Assembly: GCA_035515475.1 (NCBI GenBank)
Contig: DATJBF010000046.1
Span: 917-64,916 of the forward strand
From: Verrucomicrobiia bacterium
GTDB taxonomy: Bacteria; Verrucomicrobiota; Verrucomicrobiia; Palsa-1439
Direction: 5' to 3'
Length of the DNA stretch: 64,000 bases
Position 1 is the first letter of the stretch, and every line of letters begins with the position of its first letter. The notes under the pieces were generated by a model. The model worked only from the letters and a program-made list of their open reading frames with translations. It was not told where the DNA came from and did no database searches. Shown piece after piece: positions 1-58,265 of the stretch. Made by a program: the position numbers and the translations under genes.

Positions 1-1051
1 CGGAGACCGCTGATGGTCGGCATCCGCGGGTCGTCCCAGCCGTGGACGATGCCATCCTTGACGAGTTGCATGAGCTTGCGTTTGCTCATGATGGTGTAGC
101 CAACGCTGAGCCGGGCGAACTCGAACTGGTGCGGCAACGGACGCGGCAGGTCGAGGTTCTCCAGAATCCAGTCGTAGAGCGGCCGGTGGACCTCGAACTC
201 CAGCGTGCAGATGCTGTGGGTGATGCCCTCGATGTAATCGCTCAGGCAATGGGCGAAATCGTACATCGGATAAATGCACCATTTGTTGCCGGTATGATGA
301 TGTTCCGAGTGGCGAATACGGTACAACACCGGGTCGCGCATCCAGATGTTGGGCGACGCCATGTCGATCTTCGCTTTCAGCGTCCGCGCCCCGTCGGGGA
401 ACTCGCCGTTCTTCATGCGCACGAACAGGTCGAGGCTCTCCTTGACAGTGCGGTTGCGGAACGGGCTTTCCTTGCCGGGTTTGTCCGGGGCGCCGCGATA
501 GGCATCCGTGTCCTCGGGCGAGAGATCGCACACGTACGCCTTGCCTTTTTGGATCAACTCGATGGCATATGCGTAAATCTGGTCGAAGTAGTCGCTGGCA
601 TAAAATGCTTCGAGAAGCGTGGGACGGGCGTCTCGGCTGTCCATGTTCTCGGATGCGGACGGGCGAGACGCCCGTCCCACGGTCGCCGGCAGATAGAAAT
701 CCGGTTTCCCGTTGCTGGTGATTGTCTCCGGCGTTTTGCCTTTCGGCTTCAGGCCGAGGCAGTGGTCGGCCCAGCCGGCGATCAGCCAGTTCACGTCCTC
801 GGTGATCGAGTCCACGTACTCGACGTCTTCCTTGGTCGGGTTGGTGTCGTCCATGCGCAGGTTGCATTGACCATTGAACTCGCGGGCAATGCCGAAATTC
901 AGGCAGATCGATTTGGCGTGGCCGATGTGGAGATATCCGTTCGGCTCCGGCGGGAAGCGCGTAACGATCTTCTTGTGTTTGCCGGATTCGAAGTCGGCCT
1001 TGACGATGTCGCGAATGAAATCCGACGGCTGAACTGTGGGCTCGTTTGACA
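1..1051 (-). CDS. glnS: Glutaminyl-tRNA synthetase, N-terminal about 350 aa; gene continues past window start
   Basis: Minus-strand translation starting at 1051 gives [54 protein letters not shown]...IMSKRKL. The class I HIGH and MSK motifs are present and collinear with E. coli GlnRS. The plus-strand ORF 42..1049 is its antisense shadow. Confidence 0.9.
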
Positions 1052-1245
1052 TATCAAGCATAGGAAAGTGGATTTTCGGCGTTTTGTCCATAGCGGCTGT
1101 TGGTAAGGAGCGACCCCGCCTGGACCGGGGCGATTTGCGACTGCACCGGACGGACGGCCCGGCGGTCCGTCCCTACCGAAGACACAGCGAGCGTCAGAAC
1201 GCTCTCGCGCTCCGACGCTCCACGCCCCAACGCTCTGGCGGGTAG

Positions 1246-1566
1246 TTACGCCGTCGTCAATTCGTTGACGAGCTTCTCGCGAGACGATTGATCGGCGTAC
1301 CGGTTGGGATCGGCCAGTCCCGAGTCGATCCGATGTTTGCGGGTAGCGTAGTTGCCGCGTTCGTCCGTCAGAATCTGCCACGGATCGGCAGCATCCTGTT
1401 TCGCGGCAGCGATCTTCTCGTTCAATTCCGCGTTGATCATGCTGGCGTGCGAGCCGAACTCGCTGGGGAAAACCGGCGCCTTGCCTTTGCCCTCTTTCTT
1501 TTCTTCTTTCGCTTTGGGTCGGGCGTGGGTGACGCCTGCTTTGGGTGCTGCGGTCGATGTCGCCAT
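1246..1566 (-). CDS. Small hypothetical protein (106 aa), Lys/Glu-rich N-terminus
   Basis: Intact ORF with host-like codon usage, between glnS and nrdJ in the same orientation. No recognisable domain. Confidence 0.45.
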   Translation of the reverse strand: MATSTAAPKAGVTHARPKAKEEKKEGKGKAPVFPSEFGSHASMINAELNEKIAAAKQDAADPWQILTDERGNYATRKHRIDSGLADPNRYADQSSREKLVNELTTA

Positions 1567-19944: not shown

Positions 19945-20756
19945 TGTGGGAGGGGCCTCCGTGCCCCGACCGGATGTGCTTCGTGGCTGTCATCCTGCTT
20001 GTCCGCCGTAGCTTGAGCGAAGGCGGAAGCGAAGCGAAGGATCTCTGTCGTTGAAGCCGAGAGCGCAGAGTACTCACCACGAAGAGCACGAAGAGCACGG
20101 AGCTGTTGATTGCTGATAGACTTCTCCCTTCATCCCCTTGCGCTCGGCTTCCCGTACTTCTTACCTGGCTTCTCACGCACCACGGTCGTTTCGGCGCCGA
20201 GAAACCAGCCGCGGCGACGATTCAACATCTGGTGATATCTCTTGCGCCCCACGCGTCGCGCCTCCTGCTGGAGTCCGGAACGAATACGGCGCACTTCGGT
20301 GACAGCTTTGGGTTCTTTCCCGGTCTTCATAACCCCATGACTACTTGTGGTGTTTCCACGCGGATCGCCGGATACGGTTCAAAGTTTCCCCAAGCAAGCT
20401 CCAGGTATTCCCTCAAGAAGATTGTCATTTGAGAGCATGACCTTTCAGGTAATATATCATTTTGAAAACTGAACGCTTCACAATACGATTCCTGTATGGC
20501 ATGTTTCACCCGTGCCTACCCGCGTAAGGAAGGAAAAGACAAAGGTGGGCGCCCTGGAAGGAACCGCTATGATTGCGCTTCGTATCTTTGCGCAAGCGAC
20601 CGGGCACCGGATCGGGCCCAATGACCTTGGAGCCGTCGCACTTGGGAAGCCGGGAGCAAGTAAGAGCGGAACAACGAGAACAGCTAAACTCTCTGGGTGA
20701 AGAGCGCAGAAAGATTCTAGGAAACGCCGCTCAAGCACGATGACCAAGGAAATAGC

Positions 20757-28085: not shown

Positions 28086-31196
<3,111 letters not shown>

Positions 31197-31205
31197 GGCG
31201 AACTG

Positions 31206-31856
31206 CTATTCCCCGAATTGGCTCTTGAGCAATTCGGACTTCAGAAGAGAGCTTCCCTTGGTTACCACGTGCTCGCCGTCTTTGAGGCCATCGAGGATTT
31301 CAGCATTTCCGTTCTGGGCACGACCTGTCTTGATGACACGCTTGGTGAACGTGTGGGCGTCGGTGGCGACAAACACAATTTCCTGATCGTCCAGCCGCTG
31401 CACTGCTTCGTCGGGAATCACAACGACGTTGTCCACCGTGCCGGTGACAATATCCACGTCGGCGAACATGCCGGGTTTGAGTCGCGCGGTTTGGTTGTCG
31501 GTTTCGATCCGCACCGGCACCGTCCGTGACTTCTCCTCGACTTCGGGGTCGATCAGAACGACCTTGCCCGTGAACGATTCATCGGGATACGCTGTCGTGT
31601 GGACGGTCGCTTCCTGGCCGACGCGCACGGCAGCGATGTCACTCACGTTTACGTCGGCGATGACCCAGACGTTTGTCGGGTCGCTAATGGTGTAGAGGTC
31701 TCTGGTCTTATCCACCGTCTCGCCGACCGTACCGAGCCGCTCGACGACGAGTCCGCTGATGGGGGCTTTCAGTTCCAAAAGTTTGAGTAATTCGGGGCTG
31801 TCGACGAGCGCCATCACATCGCCTTGGTGGACTGCGGCGCCGACGTCGTAATTCAT
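31206..31856 (-). pseudogene. C-terminal fragment of CusB/CzcB-type adaptor, severed by transposon insertion
   Basis: Only the distal 216 aa of a membrane-fusion protein (..ALVDSPELLKL...). The N-terminal lipoprotein part lies 2.7 kb upstream at 34601..34882. Confidence 0.8.
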
Positions 31857-32022
31857 CGTTGCAATACGACCCTCAAATGTCGGTAGTGCGTCAGTTTGAA
31901 ATCAGATAGTTTTCCGTATCCCTTTAGCCCGCCAGTAAAATCCTCTCTTCGCGGTCGTTTGTTCGACCCATTGTGCCCATGAGGGGCCGATGCACCGTGC
32001 GGAATAGAGGATATGGTAAAGG

Positions 32023-32379
32023 CTACCTTGGTTGTGTCGTTGGTAACGCTGGCGCTGATTGTGTTGGTTGTGGTCGGGAACTATCGCTTGGACCAGCGGG
32101 TGCAGAAGCTGGAAACCATTTGCGGATTACGGGCCACGCAGCAATAGCGGCGAATATCATCGTAAGCAGCGCTATCCAAAAACCCAAACTGTGCGGTTCT
32201 GGTTTGGTGACTTGCTCTTGTATCTTTTCCAAGTGTAGGCGCTGGCGCTCTGCCTGTCGTCGGTCCAACTCTGCGCGACACGCCTCGAAAGCCGGCGAGG
32301 GATACCGGGATTGAGACATCCGTTTGTGTAGCTCTTCGTCTGTATCACCACGATAATCGAAGTCATTAGGGAAGGCCAT
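32023..32379 (-). CDS. Hypothetical small membrane protein (transposon cargo)
   Basis: 118-aa ORF with one transmembrane helix (FWIALLTMIFAAIAAWPVI). No homology recognised. Confidence 0.3.
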   Translation of the reverse strand: MAFPNDFDYRGDTDEELHKRMSQSRYPSPAFEACRAELDRRQAERQRLHLEKIQEQVTKPEPHSLGFWIALLTMIFAAIAAWPVIRKWFPASAPAGPSDSSRPQPTQSAPALPTTQPR

Positions 32380-32391
32380 TTGCTTTGCAGT

Positions 32392-33216
32392 TCAGTCTAG
32401 CAAAGCAACGATTTCTTCCAAGCTCCAAACGTGATCGGCAACGCCCGCTTCCATTGCTGGCGTCACACGCAGACTCTGGTGTATGCGTGCGTAGTTGTAG
32501 TGCATGTAGTGGAGCGCAATCGCGTGTTCCAGCATAGTGACTTTCTTTGAGAAGGCGTTGGTTAGCCGCGTGAATCGGCGCATCTGCATCCGCATCGTCA
32601 GGTTTTGGCGCTCGGTGTAGCTGGTTGAGATGTGCGCGGGGTCGGGGTCGCCGGAGACTCGCAGGGTCGTGCAACCAGTGCATTGTGGCGGGCTGTAATG
32701 GTGCTCTGTGCCCGTTGGGTTGCCGTACATCTTGACCAGCATGGCGTAATCAATCTCACTGCCGAAAGCATCCTCGACGGCTGACAGATAAGCCTTGTGG
32801 CCGTCAGTAGTGAGTTGCACACGATTCACAAGGCGGCTTTTGAGATCGTGGATGAAGTGATAGGCGGCGCCCGCATCGCGGCTACTGACCAGCCAGCAAG
32901 GAACGAGTTTTGTGTCAGCATCCAAGGCGACCCATGTCCACACGTCGCCATAGCCCCACTTGCCTTTTAATTCATCGGGCAGGTTGCGCTCCTTCGCGTG
33001 GCAATAAGTCCAGATTTCGTCACACTGAATCTTGGTGGACGTTAGGCCCCGCAGGTGTTCATCTTGATACTCGGCGCAAGCCCGGCCCAGATCGGCCAGC
33101 AGCTTGGCAACGGTGTTCTGTGCTGCCCCTGTCATGCGCTGGACGGCCCGCATCGAGTTGCCTTCGACCAGTGCGGCAACGATTGCGACTCGTTTATCTG
33201 TACTGAGCTTGTTCAT
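32392..33216 (-). CDS. DDE transposase, IS1595/IS1-related
   Basis: N-terminal HTH, IQCDEIWTYCHAK (like the IS1595 VEvDETY motif), TDGHKAY, and a C-terminal TERQNLTMRMQMRRFTRLTNAFSKKVTMLEHAIALHYMHYNYARIH that resembles the IS1 InsB tail. Confidence 0.8.
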   Translation of the reverse strand: MNKLSTDKRVAIVAALVEGNSMRAVQRMTGAAQNTVAKLLADLGRACAEYQDEHLRGLTSTKIQCDEIWTYCHAKERNLPDELKGKWGYGDVWTWVALDADTKLVPCWLVSSRDAGAAYHFIHDLKSRLVNRVQLTTDGHKAYLSAVEDAFGSEIDYAMLVKMYGNPTGTEHHYSPPQCTGCTTLRVSGDPDPAHISTSYTERQNLTMRMQMRRFTRLTNAFSKKVTMLEHAIALHYMHYNYARIHQSLRVTPAMEAGVADHVWSLEEIVALLD

Positions 33217-33319
33217 AGATCAAAGGTAGCAGCTAATGCTTGAGCGGTCAAGCATAAAATGCATAACAATTCTTCAGCTTTGAACAAGCGCGGAAGCCGC
33301 GCTCGGAGGGGCTTGGAGT

Positions 33320-33631
33320 CTAGGTTAAGACCTGATCGAAGGCTTGCTCTAACTGACTCTTACGAATTCTGGATGCGGAGCCGAAGCGAGTACGGGCCGA
33401 TTCAAATACACGTTCCGCCTTCTTCACAAGCACGCGAAAACCCACTTGTGCAATGTTGTGCTTATTGAAGTTTAGGATGCGGAAACCAGTGGGCATACCG
33501 GTGAATATGCCGATTTCCATGAGCAACACATCGTCAATCTCTTCTACGATTGACGGCTCTCCCGTTTTAAATGTGACATAATAAATATCATCTTCCTGAT
33601 CGTAGTGCTCAGAGAAGTCGATGTTCATTAT
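33320..33631 (-). CDS. DUF2283-like small protein (putative antitoxin-like), low-GC cargo
   Basis: MNIDFSEHYDQEDDIYYVTFKTGEPSIVEEIDDVLLMEIGIFTGMPTGFRILNF matches the DUF2283 Y-D-x-E-x-D-x-L-Y...G-I-E-I-L pattern. Confidence 0.45.
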   Translation of the reverse strand: MMNIDFSEHYDQEDDIYYVTFKTGEPSIVEEIDDVLLMEIGIFTGMPTGFRILNFNKHNIAQVGFRVLVKKAERVFESARTRFGSASRIRKSQLEQAFDQVLT

Positions 33632-33657
33632 TCCTTTTTGGCCCTTCATTATCATCC

Positions 33658-34026
33658 TCATGCGGGTTTGAATTCCTTCCCATCTTTCGGCTTCACAACC
33701 GGATAAACGGTACAAATCCGCTTTCTGTTTTCATCAATTACGACAGCAAAATATACACCATCGTTGAACGTTGTCGATATGGTCGGAGCTATCATTATGG
33801 TGCTGAACCGCTTGTAATACATGAACTGTGTCGGCTCATGCTTGTGGTGTCGTACCACATCTGGATTGATCAACGTCGTAGGAATTTTCTCCCCATTGAG
33901 AGGGTAATAATACCTCTCTGGCTCTGAACAGATCTCATCCCACTTGTTCTTGGAGAGCGTAACGCTACCATGATATTTCGTTGGGAAAGTTACTTTCCCG
34001 TCTGCTCCAAATGCGATTCCTGCCAC
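33658..34026 (-). CDS. Hypothetical protein, upstream partner of the DUF2283-like gene (low GC)
   Basis: 122-aa ORF overlapping the downstream gene, with AT-rich codon usage. Function unknown. Confidence 0.35.
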   Translation of the reverse strand: MAGIAFGADGKVTFPTKYHGSVTLSKNKWDEICSEPERYYYPLNGEKIPTTLINPDVVRHHKHEPTQFMYYKRFSTIMIAPTISTTFNDGVYFAVVIDENRKRICTVYPVVKPKDGKEFKPA

Positions 34027-34300
34027 TGGCGGATACCTCGAATCCTAGATTTGCAAAGAACAACAAGACAGACCCAAGCCCCGAATGTTTAGCCCGAGTA
34101 GCCTTCTTTGTAATCTTTGCCTTTTGGTTGCGGTCAGTTTGCTGTCGTCCATTTGCACCGTGAACGCTCCAAGCCGATTGGCATATTACGGAGCCACTGA
34201 ACCGCTCAGGCGAGAGAGAGAATGACATGACGCACCGGACCATGCAAGCTATTTTATTGCGAAATGTGGCGCATCGCGGACTTGTCTGCCTGAATGCGAA

Positions 34301-34540
34301 TTAGGGTGCTTTCGACCAGCGAGATTTTGCTGCTTTTCGTGCAATTTCTGCACGTTTTCTGGCCGTAAGCTTCTTTGCCCTTGCCTTGCCGCCCTTTAGC
34401 CCCCCAAGTCTCCCTAGATACACCGCAGCCGGGTTCTTTTCTGGCTTTGGCTGATCTGTCTGCCCGGTAGATTGCGCCACGATACGAGCAGCAAGCTGGT
34501 TTATGTCCTCGGATTTGGGCTTCCTTGACCGCTTAGGCAT
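34301..34540 (-). CDS. Small basic hypothetical protein (about 80 aa)
   Basis: MPKRSRKPKSEDINQLAARIVAQ...KGGKARAKKLTARKRAEIARKAAKSRW is highly basic and plausibly nucleic-acid binding. Confidence 0.3.
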   Translation of the reverse strand: MPKRSRKPKSEDINQLAARIVAQSTGQTDQPKPEKNPAAVYLGRLGGLKGGKARAKKLTARKRAEIARKAAKSRWSKAP

Positions 34541-34600
34541 ACCTGCATCATGGCACAACGCGGGACGGCTGGCAAGGGCCGCGAGATTCAAACTGACGCA

Positions 34601-34882
34601 CTACCCAAATGTCGAAGTGACCTTGGCAGTGTGATTGAGGTTGAAACTGACATGGCCCGGCGCCCGCAATGTGAGGCTCAGCTTTCCGTGGCCGACGGTA
34701 ATGCTGTTGATGGTTACCAGCTTCAGGCTTTCGTCGCTTAGTTGGACAGTGTCCTTCTGCTCCGGGGCCGGCTGAGTCACGGGATTCTTCCCCGGTTCGT
34801 CAACGTCTTTCTTGCCGCAGCCCGTCAGCAGCGCCGCGCAGGCGGCGGCAATCCCCAGTTGGATGAGATCGTGTCGAGTCAT
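34601..34882 (-). pseudogene. N-terminal lipoprotein fragment of the CusB/CzcB-type adaptor, truncated by the transposon
   Basis: Lipobox LLTGC, then ...VTINSITVGHGKLSLTLRAPGHVSFNLNHTAKVTSTFG*. The stop codon is created inside the transposon terminal repeat. Confidence 0.75.
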
Positions 34883-36147
34883 TTCGCTTTCTCCTGCAGT
34901 TCCGACAATGGCATGCCCGCTGCCGTTTCGAGCGCCGCCTGCGCGTCGTAAAGTTTCTGCAACGAATCGAAGTAGTCCGCCCGGGCGTCGAAGTAGGTGC
35001 GCTGGGTTTCGAGGTAGATCAACAATGGCGTGCGCCCCCCGGCGTAGCCCTGGCCAGCGTCATCCAGTGCGCGCTTGAGTTTGGCAAAGAACTCCGGAGT
35101 GAACAGCGCCAGTGATTCCCGGGCGGAAACGAGGTTGTGATACGCAGTCGTGACATCGCGGAGGACCTCCTGCTGCAGTTTTTCCAGTTCCGCCAGCGCG
35201 CTTTGCTGTTCTGCGGTGGCCGTGGCGATTTCGCCGCTCTTCCGGTCCCACAACGGCAGTGGCAACGTGATGCCGAATTGGTAGGTTTGTTCGTCGGGAA
35301 GATACTCGACGCTCGGGCCGACCGTGAAATCCGGCAACCGCGATTTGCGGACAGACCGGAGATTCAACCCCGTGCGCTCGACTTCGGTCACCTGGATCTT
35401 AAGGCTCGGATTGGACGCCGCCACCTGTTGCAGCAGAGTTGTTTCCGGCGGCACAATCACCACGGCACTGAGCGCGCCCGTCACCTCAAAGTCTGTGTCG
35501 GGCCTGCGACCGAGCAGAGTACTCAACGCCGCGCGTGCCGCCGCCCGTTGGGCTTGCGCATCGCCGAGCGCCTTCTGGGCCGTCACTACTTCGACTTCGG
35601 CCTTCGTCGCATCAAACTCGGACGCAAAGCCATTGGCGACCCGTTTGCGGGCCGCTTCCAGGAACGTCTTGGACAACGTCACGCCCTGCTCTTTGAGCGC
35701 GAGCACCTGTTGGAAGACCAAGAGCGTGTAAAAAGAGCGGCGAACCTGTATGTCGAGTTGCTCGCGAAACGCCGTCAGCGCCAACTCGCGGAGTTCCACG
35801 TCCTTCTCGGCCAGGGCCCGTCGCAGGCTGCGTTTGCCCGGAAACTCGAAGGTTTGGGTGAGTTCGAAGACGCCGTCAAACTCGCGTGAGGAGGGGCCGC
35901 CCGACGGCTCTGATCTTCGCAGGCCGGGAAGGGCGGACAACGACGGGTTGTCCCACGTGTTGGCAGTGGTCACCTCACCGCGCGCGGCGGCAACGCCCGC
36001 CGAGAGAGCCCGGATTTCCGGATTATTCTCTTGCGCTTCGCGGACGGCGGCCGCCACCGTCAGAGCCGGAGGTGGCGCAGACCACGCTGTCGTACACGCG
36101 ACCACGGCCCAAGCGAGACGTGTCAGCCGAATCGTACCATGAGCCAT
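34879..36147 (-). CDS. TolC-like outer-membrane efflux factor (CusC/CzcC family)
   Basis: Signal peptide, then paired OEP repeats (..LTLPLPLWDRKSGEIATATAEQQSALAELEKLQQEVLRDVTTAYHNLVSARESL..). Confidence 0.8.
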   Translation of the reverse strand: MAHGTIRLTRLAWAVVACTTAWSAPPPALTVAAAVREAQENNPEIRALSAGVAAARGEVTTANTWDNPSLSALPGLRRSEPSGGPSSREFDGVFELTQTFEFPGKRSLRRALAEKDVELRELALTAFREQLDIQVRRSFYTLLVFQQVLALKEQGVTLSKTFLEAARKRVANGFASEFDATKAEVEVVTAQKALGDAQAQRAAARAALSTLLGRRPDTDFEVTGALSAVVIVPPETTLLQQVAASNPSLKIQVTEVERTGLNLRSVRKSRLPDFTVGPSVEYLPDEQTYQFGITLPLPLWDRKSGEIATATAEQQSALAELEKLQQEVLRDVTTAYHNLVSARESLALFTPEFFAKLKRALDDAGQGYAGGRTPLLIYLETQRTYFDARADYFDSLQKLYDAQAALETAAGMPLSELQEKAK

Positions 36148-36234
36148 TTTCGTTTGTATACTTATACTCACAGGTCCAAAACGCCAGAACGCGACCGATG
36201 AAACCAGCGAGACCGCCGGAGACCCAGTCAACGT

Positions 36235-45317: not shown

Positions 45318-45396
45318 AAAAAACTCCTACCGAAACTTTCGTTTCAGTAGGAGTCATTAGTCGTCGGTAGAACGACGTTGGGCGAACTCCATCGCC
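45318..45396 (-). promoter_or_regulatory. Conserved structured 5' leader element, copy 1 of 3
   Basis: Plus-strand AAAAAACTCCTACC-loop-GGTAGGAGTCAT ... GGCGAACTCCATCGCC. The same blocks recur at 52201-52295 and 58118-58202. Confidence 0.6.
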
Positions 45397-45477
45397 ACTA
45401 TTTACAGCATTAGGTTGCCAGTACTCGACCGCAAAGTCAACCTCGCTGAACAATGCGGTTGGCGTTAGAGTTCCGGG

Positions 45478-46329: not shown

Positions 46330-46472
46330 CAAGCCGCCAGCTCGTTGGTACTGATATGTCAACCAGTCTGGAGCGTGGTTCTGCTCCAGAAGGTGATGGA
46401 GTCCACCGCAATCGCCGGTTGGCTGATGACTCCTGTTGAGGCTGAAGTGCCTCAGTCAGGAGCGGTCAGCGA

Positions 46473-52200: not shown

Positions 52201-52295
52201 GACTCGTTACCGATTCTCATTGCGTTTCGGTAGGAGTCATCAACCGGAGGGCGGTTCCCCCGAAATGCTTCGGGGCAGGCAAACTCCATTGCCTG
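52201..52295 (-). promoter_or_regulatory. Conserved structured 5' leader element, copy 2 of 3 (abuts the start codon)
   Basis: GACTCGTTACCG-loop-CGGTAGGAGTCAT ... CAGGCAAACTCCATTGCCTG. The second hairpin carries a compensatory G-C to A-T change relative to copies 1 and 3. Confidence 0.6.
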
Positions 52296-52410
52296 AACAA
52301 ATTCTATCATCCTTTCAGGTGAATGCAACCATCCCGGCAGCCTGCCCGGATGTCGAGGGGATTCGCCAGCGGTGTCGAGGCAACGGCGCTCCCCAATCAG
52401 TCAATCACTT

Positions 52411-58117: not shown

Positions 58118-58202
58118 ACAAAAAACTCCTACCAACGCTTGCGTCGGTAGGAGTTATCACCCCGAACGCTTTCGGGGAAAGTTGCCGGCGAACTCCATCG
58201 CC
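58118..58202 (-). promoter_or_regulatory. Conserved structured 5' leader element, copy 3 of 3
   Basis: ACAAAAAACTCCTACC-loop-GGTAGGAGTTAT, CCCCGAA..TTCGGGG hairpin, GGCGAACTCCATCGCC. In mRNA sense it reads hairpin + UUUUUU about 15 nt before the AUG. Confidence 0.6.
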
Positions 58203-58265
58203 GTCTACCTTTAGCTTACCGTTGTCCGGCCAACTGTCAATCTGTCGGTGGCGCCAATGCTGCGT

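Follow-up and report, generated by a model that had tools for sequence, protein, structure and literature searches.

In a stretch of Verrucomicrobiia DNA, what interrupts the adaptor gene within an RND efflux operon of the heavy-metal type, and to which family of mobile elements does the interrupting DNA belong? We addressed this question for a stretch of 64,000 nucleotides (nt) from GenBank assembly GCA_035515475.1 (contig DATJBF010000046.1, positions 917 to 64,916), which we call the window and in whose coordinates all positions are given. Our data support the conclusion, at a probability of about 85%, that the adaptor gene has been split by a 2,724-bp insertion sequence (IS) of the IS1 family, which is of the transporter type (i.e., it carries passenger genes) and encodes its transposase in a single open reading frame (ORF), without the InsA/InsB' frameshift. 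An earlier reading of this DNA, hereafter the original prediction, had already placed a cargo-carrying transposon at this locus and had described its transposase as IS1595/IS1-like.

Ends, target duplication and the interrupted adaptor gene

The element is bounded by 19-bp terminal inverted repeats (TIRs), namely GGTAGTGCGTCAGTTTGAA at 31882 to 31900 and its exact reverse complement at 34587 to 34605, which represent, in the orientation of the transposase gene, the right end (IRR) and the left end (IRL), respectively; the same 19-mer bounds the relatives at loci L009 to L011. Recomputation by script gave a 19/19 match between the two repeats, and a repeat finder returned the pair (I1) as the longest inverted repeat of the region. 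When up to 3 mismatches were allowed, the window contained only these two matches to the 19-mer (0.04 expected; two or more matches in 0/100 shuffles), and no third, internal TIR such as a composite origin would leave. Directly outside both TIRs lies the 8-bp direct repeat CAAATGTC (31874 to 31881 and 34606 to 34613), which reads CAAATGTC on the plus strand and GACATTTG in the sense of the interrupted gene; by our own arithmetic, an 8-mer at a fixed position would match by chance with a probability of ~1.5e-5. The G+C content of the element is 52%, versus 60% for the window, and that of its cargo region is 41 to 47%. The ends and flanking repeats of the original prediction were thus reproduced exactly, with CAAATGTC abutting both ends, and the search for other copies that it had proposed returned none within the 64-kb window, whether by TIR, by transposase or by small ORF.

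The interrupted gene lies on the minus strand. Its 5' part (34606 to 34882; codons 1 to 92; NCBI HUI06811, "hypothetical protein") begins with a lipoprotein signal (...LLTGC) and, as it stands, forms an ORF at 34601 to 34882 that stops inside the TIR, one codon past the junction. Its 3' part (31206 to 31881) is represented by a called ORF at 31206 to 31856 (216 amino acids [aa]), which starts at an internal methionine, has no signal peptide or export signal, and matches HlyD_D23 and CzcB profiles. Three domains of CzcB/CusB-type adaptors are present in this fragment (barrel-sandwich, beta-barrel and C-terminal), which scored by itself 140 bits against TIGR01730 (RND_mfp; cut-off, 94.9). In an NCBIfam scan, the adaptor reached none of the equivalog cut-offs for CzcB, CusB and IhpB, and its metal specificity is therefore not assignable. 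The gene is located, as the original prediction had it, between an outer-membrane factor gene and a CusA/CzcA-type RND gene: upstream lies an intact gene for an outer-membrane efflux protein (34879 to 36231, minus strand; 450 aa listed, 422 aa called; Pfam OEP, E = 2e-52), and downstream an intact gene for a CusA/CzcA-family RND permease (28086 to 31196, minus strand; 1036 aa; TIGR00914, 1276 bits versus a cut-off of 701). This order of outer-membrane, adaptor and RND genes matches that of the intact loci L005 to L008.

Excision of the element together with one copy of the repeat yields a 314-aa ORF in which ...KVTSTF is joined in frame to EGRIATMNYDVG..., and which starts with an N-terminal lipoprotein signal (...AALLTGC). 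The reconstructed adaptor has >1,000 homologues, the best of which are single ORFs of 311 to 316 aa that align collinearly with it at 100% coverage, bearing out the restorable frame that had been proposed for this gene. The best intact homologue (P0121) is 84% identical, and the homologue search returned no intact allele of the same lineage above that value. At the empty site in L005, the flanks of the window align to adjacent, overlapping positions (~90% and ~81% nucleotide identity), and both L005 and L016 read ...ACTTCGACATTTGAGGGTCGT... through the target site, with a single GACATTTG. Because intact single-ORF homologues exist and L005 and L016 provide empty sites, the split is not a natural feature of this adaptor, whose short form, with almost no alpha-hairpin, is that of a natural subfamily. 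The flanking repeat is a target-site duplication (TSD), i.e., an 8-bp staggered-cut duplication within codon 92/93 of a lipoprotein CzcB/CusB-type adaptor gene.

The L016 locus shows a peculiarity of its own. Its adaptor is 77% identical to the reconstructed one and reads through the target site, yet the gene is called there at 216 aa; where the N-terminal region of the adaptor would be expected, ~90 nt upstream of the target site, lies the end of a different ORF (L016:1-206). This arrangement suggests that a truncation or rearrangement arose independently in that lineage.

As to the consequence for the pump, the insertion is predicted to leave a lipid-anchored stub of 92 residues and, separately, a fragment of 216 residues without an export signal. 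The element has the same orientation as the operon, so that transcription could still read through into the fragment and the RND gene; the fragment would be unable to reach the periplasm, leaving no bridge between the RND and outer-membrane components, and the tripartite pump would be unable to assemble despite its intact RND and outer-membrane genes. Since an adaptor without periplasmic access cannot bridge these components, loss of function of the pump is likely. The perfect ends and duplication, together with the intact flanking genes, argue for an evolutionarily recent insertion. Disruption of an efflux gene by an IS is an ordinary event; what it would mean here is that a heavy-metal-type RND operon shown as intact in public annotation is almost certainly disabled. 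In that annotation (31206 to 34882; HUI06806 to HUI06811), the 216-aa fragment passes for a normal subunit of the adaptor, the stub (93 aa) is labelled hypothetical, the transposase appears as a generic DDE-type integrase/transposase/recombinase, and a small 79-aa ORF of the element is not called. By exact protein look-up, these entries fall within HUI06805 to HUI06814 of a Verrucomicrobiae metagenome-assembled genome. Three "hypothetical" genes and one unannotated gene of this genome belong to a mobile element.

Transposase, cargo and modular relatives

The transposase gene (32392 to 33216, minus strand) encodes a 274-aa, single-ORF DDE transposase of the IS1 family with an N-terminal helix-turn-helix (HTH) and the catalytic residues D66, D137 and E202. 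Pfam returned DDE_Tnp_IS1 (25.6 bits versus a gathering score of 24.1) and DDE_Tnp_IS240, also above threshold, and NCBIfam ranked IS1 (45.7 bits) above IS6 (37 bits) and IS1595 (28.4 bits), all three below their curated cut-offs. More specifically, a profile of the transposase family aligned the HTH of Escherichia coli InsA (residues 53 to 89) with residues 9 to 45 of the window protein and also matched InsB (residues 121 to 162), and BLASTP of InsB against the window transposase gave 39% identity over 46 aa (E = 1e-5; InsB 117 to 161 to transposase 196 to 238), a match that spans the region around the catalytic glutamate (TERQNLTMRMQMRRFTRLTNAFSK in the window). The N-terminus that aligns to the InsA HTH has no Cys-rich motif in residues 1 to 60. 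Because the InsA HTH and the InsB E-region both align to it, the transposase is best described, from these alignments, as an InsAB'-like protein made as a single ORF without the InsA zinc finger. The D66/D137/E202 triad is intact in the window and kept in 13 divergent members, the exception being D137N in L109. Homologues number >8,000, and many have been named "IS1 family transposase" by NCBI, JGI and RefSeq.

The ends of the element begin with GGTAGTG, compared with GGTGATG and GGTAATG in IS1A of E. coli (read from NC_000913.3), and GGnnnTG is the end consensus of the IS1 family. The canonical IS1 layout, i.e., insA and insB' joined by a -1 frameshift in ~770 bp, is not what we found, the transposase ORF being uninterrupted over 274 aa and the element 2,724 bp long; because of this single ORF and this length, the element belongs, if anywhere, to the single-ORF subgroups of the family. 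ISfinder lists an "ISMhu11" IS1 subgroup of single-ORF elements of 900 to 4600 bp, some with passenger genes; the present element resembles it in its single-ORF IS1-type transposase, in a size range that speaks for passenger genes and in its broad phylogenetic spread. Neither the term "ISMhu11" nor the TIR sequence was mentioned in the literature searched.

Comparison with two close relatives revealed how the element is built. Both reside at sites unrelated to the window insertion, namely el9 (L009 to L011; transposase identity, 87%; 3,021 bp; identical TIRs; TSD TGAATGCC) and el12 (L012 to L014; transposase identity, 81%; 2,864 bp; TIRs of the type GGTAGTGTATCATTTTGAA; TSD GCGCCACC). At the nucleotide level, the window element is homologous to el9 only at positions 1 to 305, 1340 to 2212 and 2660 to 2724 (in transposase orientation). 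The first of these three blocks holds the left end and a small ORF, the second the transposase gene and 50 bp upstream of it, and the third the right end. The homology stops directly past the stop codon of the small ORF and resumes at a palindrome in front of the transposase gene. Between these two genes, transposase-bearing members carry different gene sets: an Eco29kI-type GIY-YIG restriction enzyme with a methylase-like gene (L060), an N6/N4 methylase fused to Mrr_cat (L119), ClpP-like SDH proteases (L088 and L092, with an NYN-domain protein also in L088), an AAA/STAND-type NTPase with an 8xMP membrane protein (L106), an HTH/Peptidase_M78 protein (L103), DUF7689 pairs (L073 and L109), a P63C protein (L035), and an HTH_3 protein with a 144-aa partner (L009). 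PADLOC gave a strong match among the cargo proteins only for the L103 gene (PD-Lambda-2_B, E = 7e-44). A blanket "defence island" label was considered and dropped, as only the restriction-modification systems and PD-Lambda-2_B are firmly "defence" and the rest is unknown or toxin-antitoxin (TA)-like.

Because passenger genes lie between its TIRs, the element is a transporter IS, an established concept (PMC3129680, PMC7986276): the cargo lies inside the TIRs, the TSD brackets the whole unit, and the relatives carry other cargo. The transporter reading of the original prediction thereby stands, given that same-TIR relatives with TSDs of their own carry different genes. As in transporter ISs of the IS1595 and other families, the TIRs enclose passenger genes unrelated to transposition and the TSD is 8 bp; the element differs from those of IS1595 in the clade of its transposase and in that the cargo, in the relatives examined, occupies a fixed slot between two conserved genes.

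In the window element, this first slot (approximately 33266 to 34300, 47% G+C) holds two co-oriented genes 8 bp apart on the minus strand, i.e., one for a putative BECR-fold RNase toxin (33658 to 34026; 122 aa; PBECR2/3-like, divergent) and one for a DUF2283-like putative antitoxin (33320 to 33649; 109 aa), together with a non-conserved spacer (34027 to 34300, minus strand). The family of the 122-aa protein is rare (48 representatives at E <= 1e-3 among 1.84 billion), and PBECR2 was matched by 11 of its 33 aligned relatives (best E = 1.8e-6) and PBECR3 by 5. The AlphaFold2 model of the 122-aa protein reached a predicted local distance difference test score (pLDDT) of 95.8, and a sequence-profile search of the PDB with this protein found no match. 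A near-invariant Thr106 in the last strand would fit the C-terminal Thr/Ser described for PBECR-type domains. DUF2283/YuzE is a predicted antitoxin (PMC12521503). The gene pair is kept in L136, which holds its closest homologue (toxin homologue, 66% identity; partner, 48% identity, E = 4e-36; 4-bp overlap), ~250 nt from the TIR-like sequence GGTAGTGTCCTAATTTGAA (L136:100-140). Since the pair is conserved there as a unit, the cargo may be taken as a TA-like module, in which we hold the assignment of the toxin with moderate confidence. The original prediction had spoken of a DUF2283-like pair; this holds, below threshold, for the 109-aa protein, and its 122-aa partner belongs instead to the rare family in which PBECR2 matches occur.

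The end variant GGTAGTGTCCTAATTTGAA also occurs just outside el12 (L012:7436-7454, GGTAGTCCCCTAATTTGAA), and a sister TIR type may thus carry the same toxin/antitoxin-like cargo.

A second variable slot of ~490 bp (31901 to 32391, minus strand) lies 3' of the transposase gene and has no Pfam match. It contains, as candidate coding sequences, a 118-aa ORF with one transmembrane helix (32023 to 32379, minus strand) and a 44-aa hydrophobic ORF (32013 to 32147, plus strand), of which some gene callers prefer the latter, and the calls differ between assemblies. This slot is dissimilar to the corresponding region of el9 and el12 except for the last ~65 bp, and in most relatives it measures only 39 to 84 bp.

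The second conserved gene, adjoining the left end, encodes a 79-aa basic protein (34301 to 34540, minus strand; MPKRSRKPK...GRLGGLKGGKARAKKLTARKRAEIARKAAKSRW). The small ORFs had originally been counted among the cargo, which does not hold for this one, a conserved core gene: all 13 transposase-bearing members examined have an equivalent on the transposase strand, upstream of the transposase gene, and in all nine genome tiles in which both genes were detectable the distance upstream is 724 to 2,389 bp. Database relatives of the small protein number ~8,000 or more (the search was saturated); they are unnamed or "hypothetical", none of them has a Pfam domain, and the copy in Mesorhizobium loti is annotated "histone H1". 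The alignment contains 23 invariant columns, and AlphaFold2 predicted four helices with moderate confidence (pLDDT, 74). Pfam gave no match to the small protein even at E <= 10, and Foldseek against the PDB returned no meaningful fold match (E ~9 at best). Homology to InsA was considered as well, and BLASTP found none. In the NCBI record the small ORF is absent, the accession numbers running on without a gap from the 122-aa gene to the adaptor stub. On account of its position, basic charge and conservation, the most economical guess would be that the small protein is a DNA-binding regulator.

Candidate control sites accompany both conserved genes. In a consensus scan, a TG-extended promoter-like site (TTGCCA-17-CATGAT; 34547 to 34575, minus strand) was located upstream of the small ORF, 12 nt inward of the left TIR. 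Likewise, most relatives have a -35-like TTGAC/TTGCC box at about this distance (~12 nt) from the left TIR and, behind it, a -10-like box, and in relatives the ATG of the small ORF lies at nt 62 to 66 of the element. In front of the transposase gene, a perfect palindrome, ATGCTTGA-N4-TCAAGCAT (33236 to 33255), lies 20 nt upstream of the ATG and overlaps a -35-like TTGAC box. In the form ATGCTTGA-N3/4-TCAAGCAT it overlaps a conserved ATGCTTGAC-N17-TAnnnT block, and a ATGCTTGAC...AAGCAT block is kept upstream of the transposase gene in most of the 13 members. A near-copy of the palindrome half-site overlaps the start codon of the small ORF (34524 to 34540; repeat I6). We consider the palindrome at 33236 to 33255 a putative promoter/operator.

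The P63C-domain cargo protein of L035 (5211-7652; element coordinates 358 to 1524, minus strand) starts with a motif that it has in common with the small protein, namely GG-ARA-x2-LTPE-R-x-EIA-x-RAA-x-ARW. This motif may be a portable, possibly DNA-binding, module.

Alternative readings and a proposed mode of action

Several observations weigh against the assignment of the element and of its parts. The Pfam matches of the transposase to IS1 and IS240 are only marginally above threshold, and the NCBIfam IS1 score of 45.7 bits compares with a cut-off of 100. The promoter-like sites of the region are consensus matches only, and their number does not exceed chance. No Pfam model matched the 122-aa window protein itself, whose toxin call rests on its relatives; its model found a best Foldseek hit in the PDB at E = 0.14, with E. 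coli HigB at rank 47, and PADLOC returned no match. The DUF2283 match of the 109-aa protein is sub-threshold (E = 0.003; 18 bits versus a cut-off of 23). Every sampled genome of the lineage has the element at the same site, and the window holds one copy; this single copy and constant site mean that there is no direct evidence of current activity of this copy. Finally, the five metagenome assemblies with identical insertion junctions (including contigs of 134.7 kb and 170.7 kb) may share read sets and were not counted as independent observations; the two full copies compared (L001 and L002) had 0 mismatches across 2,724 bp.

Might the element nonetheless be an IS1595-family transporter IS of the ISPna2+/ISNwi1+ type, with the 8-bp duplication as its family signature, as the original prediction had taken that duplication to be? 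TSDs of 8 bp occur throughout the relatives of the window element, the transposase has a weak NCBIfam match to IS1595 (NF033547; 28.4 bits, E = 1.4e-6, residues 3 to 150; cut-off, 75), and Siguier et al. reportedly first described transporter ISs, in 2009, in IS1595, a distant kin of IS1. Target duplications of IS1 elements are typically 8 to 9 bp; the 8-bp TSD is thus common to both families, equally found in IS1, and not discriminating. The transposase, in contrast, does discriminate: it had no match to Pfam DDE_Tnp_IS1595 (PF12762) at E <= 0.01, NCBIfam scored it higher for IS1, and every named homologue is called IS1. An N-terminal zinc finger (ISXO2-like) is a feature of the IS1595 family, whereas the window protein has an InsA-type HTH N-terminus without the Cys-rich zinc-finger motif and an E-region 39% identical to that of InsB. 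We therefore rejected membership in IS1595, which we regard as quite improbable, and from the IS1595/IS1-like label we retained the IS1 part, to which the DDE_Tnp_IS1 match and the InsA and InsB alignments point.

A different question is whether this copy is a decaying or domesticated relic, i.e., an immobile copy whose cargo and small ORF came in by nested insertions and which is kept because its TA-like pair makes loss costly. Its single occurrence in the window, its constant site in all sampled genomes of the lineage and the weak -10 box (TACCTT) of its transposase promoter speak for such a state, as does decay in other members (D137N and a nested IS630-like ORF in L109; the shell in L108). 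We nevertheless consider it unlikely, given the perfect TIRs and TSD, the intact 274-aa ORF with its full DDE triad, the lack of the third, internal TIR expected from a nested origin, the flanking pump genes, whose intactness argues for a recent event, and the intact close relatives el9 and el12, which have perfect TSDs at other sites. To the notion that no insertion took place, the adaptor being naturally split or the junctions an assembly artefact, we give practically no credence. NCBI does annotate the 216-aa fragment as an ordinary adaptor subunit, and L016 provides a second gene call of 216 aa. L016 itself, though, is read through at the target site, and its short gene call therefore has another cause; the junctions are identical in the five assemblies, and dozens of single-ORF homologues of 311 to 316 aa span the junction, which disposes of a natural split in relatives.

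The single-ORF IS1-family transporter IS that we favor can be set beside two known systems. It is like E. coli IS1A (NC_000913.3, 19796 to 20563) in that the DDE transposases are homologous in the HTH and E-region, the ends start with GGTnnTG and the target duplication is of similar size; in position only, the gene for a small basic protein by the left end, with a promoter in or near the inverted repeat, also has its counterpart there. It differs in size (2,724 bp versus 768 bp), in making the transposase from a single 274-aa ORF without the InsA zinc finger rather than by a -1 frameshift between insA and insB', in that its left-end small protein is dissimilar to InsA, and in carrying cargo between the small gene and the transposase gene. 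In transposons of the Tn3 family, TA modules are embedded in the transposition module and have been proposed to be transposon stabilizers (Lima-Mendez et al. 2020, PMC7157771). Here, too, a TA-type pair sits inside the transposition module rather than among ordinary passengers; the transposon family and mechanism are different, the TA identity is predicted, and there is no resolvase or res site.

From this anatomy we propose the following mode of action. The layout is IRL, putative terminal promoter, 79-aa basic protein, cargo slot, putative promoter with palindrome, 274-aa transposase, short variable slot and IRR. The unit that moved extends from TIR to TIR with the cargo included, and relatives with the same ends reside at unrelated sites, with 8-bp TSDs of their own and different cargo. 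By analogy with what is known of the IS1 family, the transposase would bind the TIRs through its InsA-like HTH and carry out DDE strand transfer. The anatomy would further allow the small basic protein and/or the transposase HTH to control the two promoters via palindromic half-sites that these share, the cargo of TA-like genes to stabilize the element (addiction) or to serve phage defence, and the cargo to be swapped among relatives by recombination in the conserved flanks. More tentatively, and with odds that we put clearly below even, the small protein could be the product of a second core gene, obligatory and so far undescribed, in an IS1-type lineage that crosses phyla, and the interval between this gene and the transposase gene would be a dedicated cargo bay exchanging TA, restriction-modification and other defence cassettes; the lineage would then amount to a minimal "defence-shuttling" transposon whose two promoters answer to one palindromic operator. 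If the small protein is indeed a regulator and the slot a vehicle for addiction or defence, the lineage would offer a simple model of how the smallest transposons spread immune cargo.

Spread of the lineage and further features of the window

To assess the spread of the ends, we scanned one genome per species (596 Gb) for the exact TIR 19-mer in 8-kb stretches. The 19-mer was present in at least 119 stretches, compared with an estimated ~4 expected by chance, from ~95 assemblies and about 15 phyla as counted from the record labels. These labels comprise Acidobacteriota, Verrucomicrobiota, Nitrospinota, Nitrospirota, Latescibacterota, Planctomycetota and Alpha-, Gamma- and "Delta"-proteobacteria, as well as Binatota, Gemmatimonadota, Bacteroidota, Chloroflexota, Spirochaetota, Bdellovibrionota and Eremiobacterota. 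Pairing of TIRs within the genome tiles gave 34 elements, half of them (17/34) with a perfect 8-bp TSD; they include pairs of 67 to 700 bp resembling MITEs (miniature inverted-repeat transposable elements), three transposase-less elements of 946 to 3,149 bp, and ten transposase-bearing elements of 1,880 to 3,594 bp. MITE-like pairs with a perfect 8-bp TSD and no transposase were found in L027, L069, L082, L113, L127 and L141. MITEs and mobile insertion cassettes are IS-derived and non-autonomous (PMC3129680), and the 67- to 700-bp TIR pairs of this family are of the same kind; the window has none. Since only 20 of the at least 119 stretches encode a transposase, the ends are mostly those of non-autonomous derivatives or of elements truncated at a tile border, or are solo ends. 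The transposases of these stretches are 45 to 62% identical to the window protein despite at least one identical end, a combination that is partly ascertainment because the scan required an exact end.

Complete copies on plasmids exist in two cultured organisms, Acidiphilium multivorum JZ-6 (2,634 bp; perfect TSD AAGCCGAG) and Mesorhizobium loti 582 (3,370 bp; perfect TSD CGCTGGTG), which makes the lineage open to experiment, and viral contigs yielded one full copy and one 345-bp MITE. The lineage is abundant and poorly annotated; the searches, which were saturated, gave at least 8,000 clusters each for the transposase and for the small protein. What makes it worthy of note is the combination of 19-bp ends kept across ~15 phyla, a small protein without a Pfam family that constantly accompanies the transposase, MITE derivatives, and a modular slot with restriction-modification, PD-Lambda-2, SDH protease, NTPase and TA-like genes.

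Individual genomes and copies provided further observations. In a Nitrospinota metagenome-assembled genome (MAG) from groundwater (JACQZB01), at least 15 separate stretches of 8 kb contain the exact TIR (L020, L022, L027, L029, L032, L036, L044, L045, L086, L098, L104, L111, L124, L128 and L131), and in a Gammaproteobacteria MAG (CAXBFG01) it occurs in 6 stretches among the matches listed, which points to bursts of the family, mostly as MITE-like copies, in some genomes. A full member with perfect TIRs on a predicted viral contig (L140:177-3082; IMG/VR UViG_3300028573_000017) has the non-matching flanks TATAATCG and GAAGGTCA, a pattern that two recombining copies, or a deletion adjoining the element, could account for. 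The L109 element (L109:2922-6515) combines the D137N transposase with a nested IS630-like ORF, and at L108:3767-6915 a shell between TIRs, flanked by a perfect TSD, has been filled by elements of the IS3 and IS110 types; some members of the family are thus decaying or acting as landing pads. The L108 element (3,149 bp, transposase-less) had also been considered as a mobile cassette, and this was rejected, as it is a short shell invaded by the IS3-/IS110-type elements.

Two features lie elsewhere in the window. An intergenic sequence at 20448 to 20466 (plus strand), GGTAATATATCATTTTGAA, agrees with the el12-type TIR GGTAGTGTATCATTTTGAA at 17 of 19 positions (~7e-4 such matches expected by chance, as an estimate); it has no partner end within 6 kb and no transposase nearby, and may represent a solo end left behind by a related element. 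In addition, four fluoride riboswitches (Rfam RF01734; 40 to 49 bits versus a gathering score of 34) fall within ~13 kb of the window, at 45341 to 45405 (minus strand), 46383 to 46442 (plus strand), 52224 to 52302 (minus strand) and 58141 to 58211 (minus strand), an unusually dense cluster that suggests a fluoride-responsive gene island.

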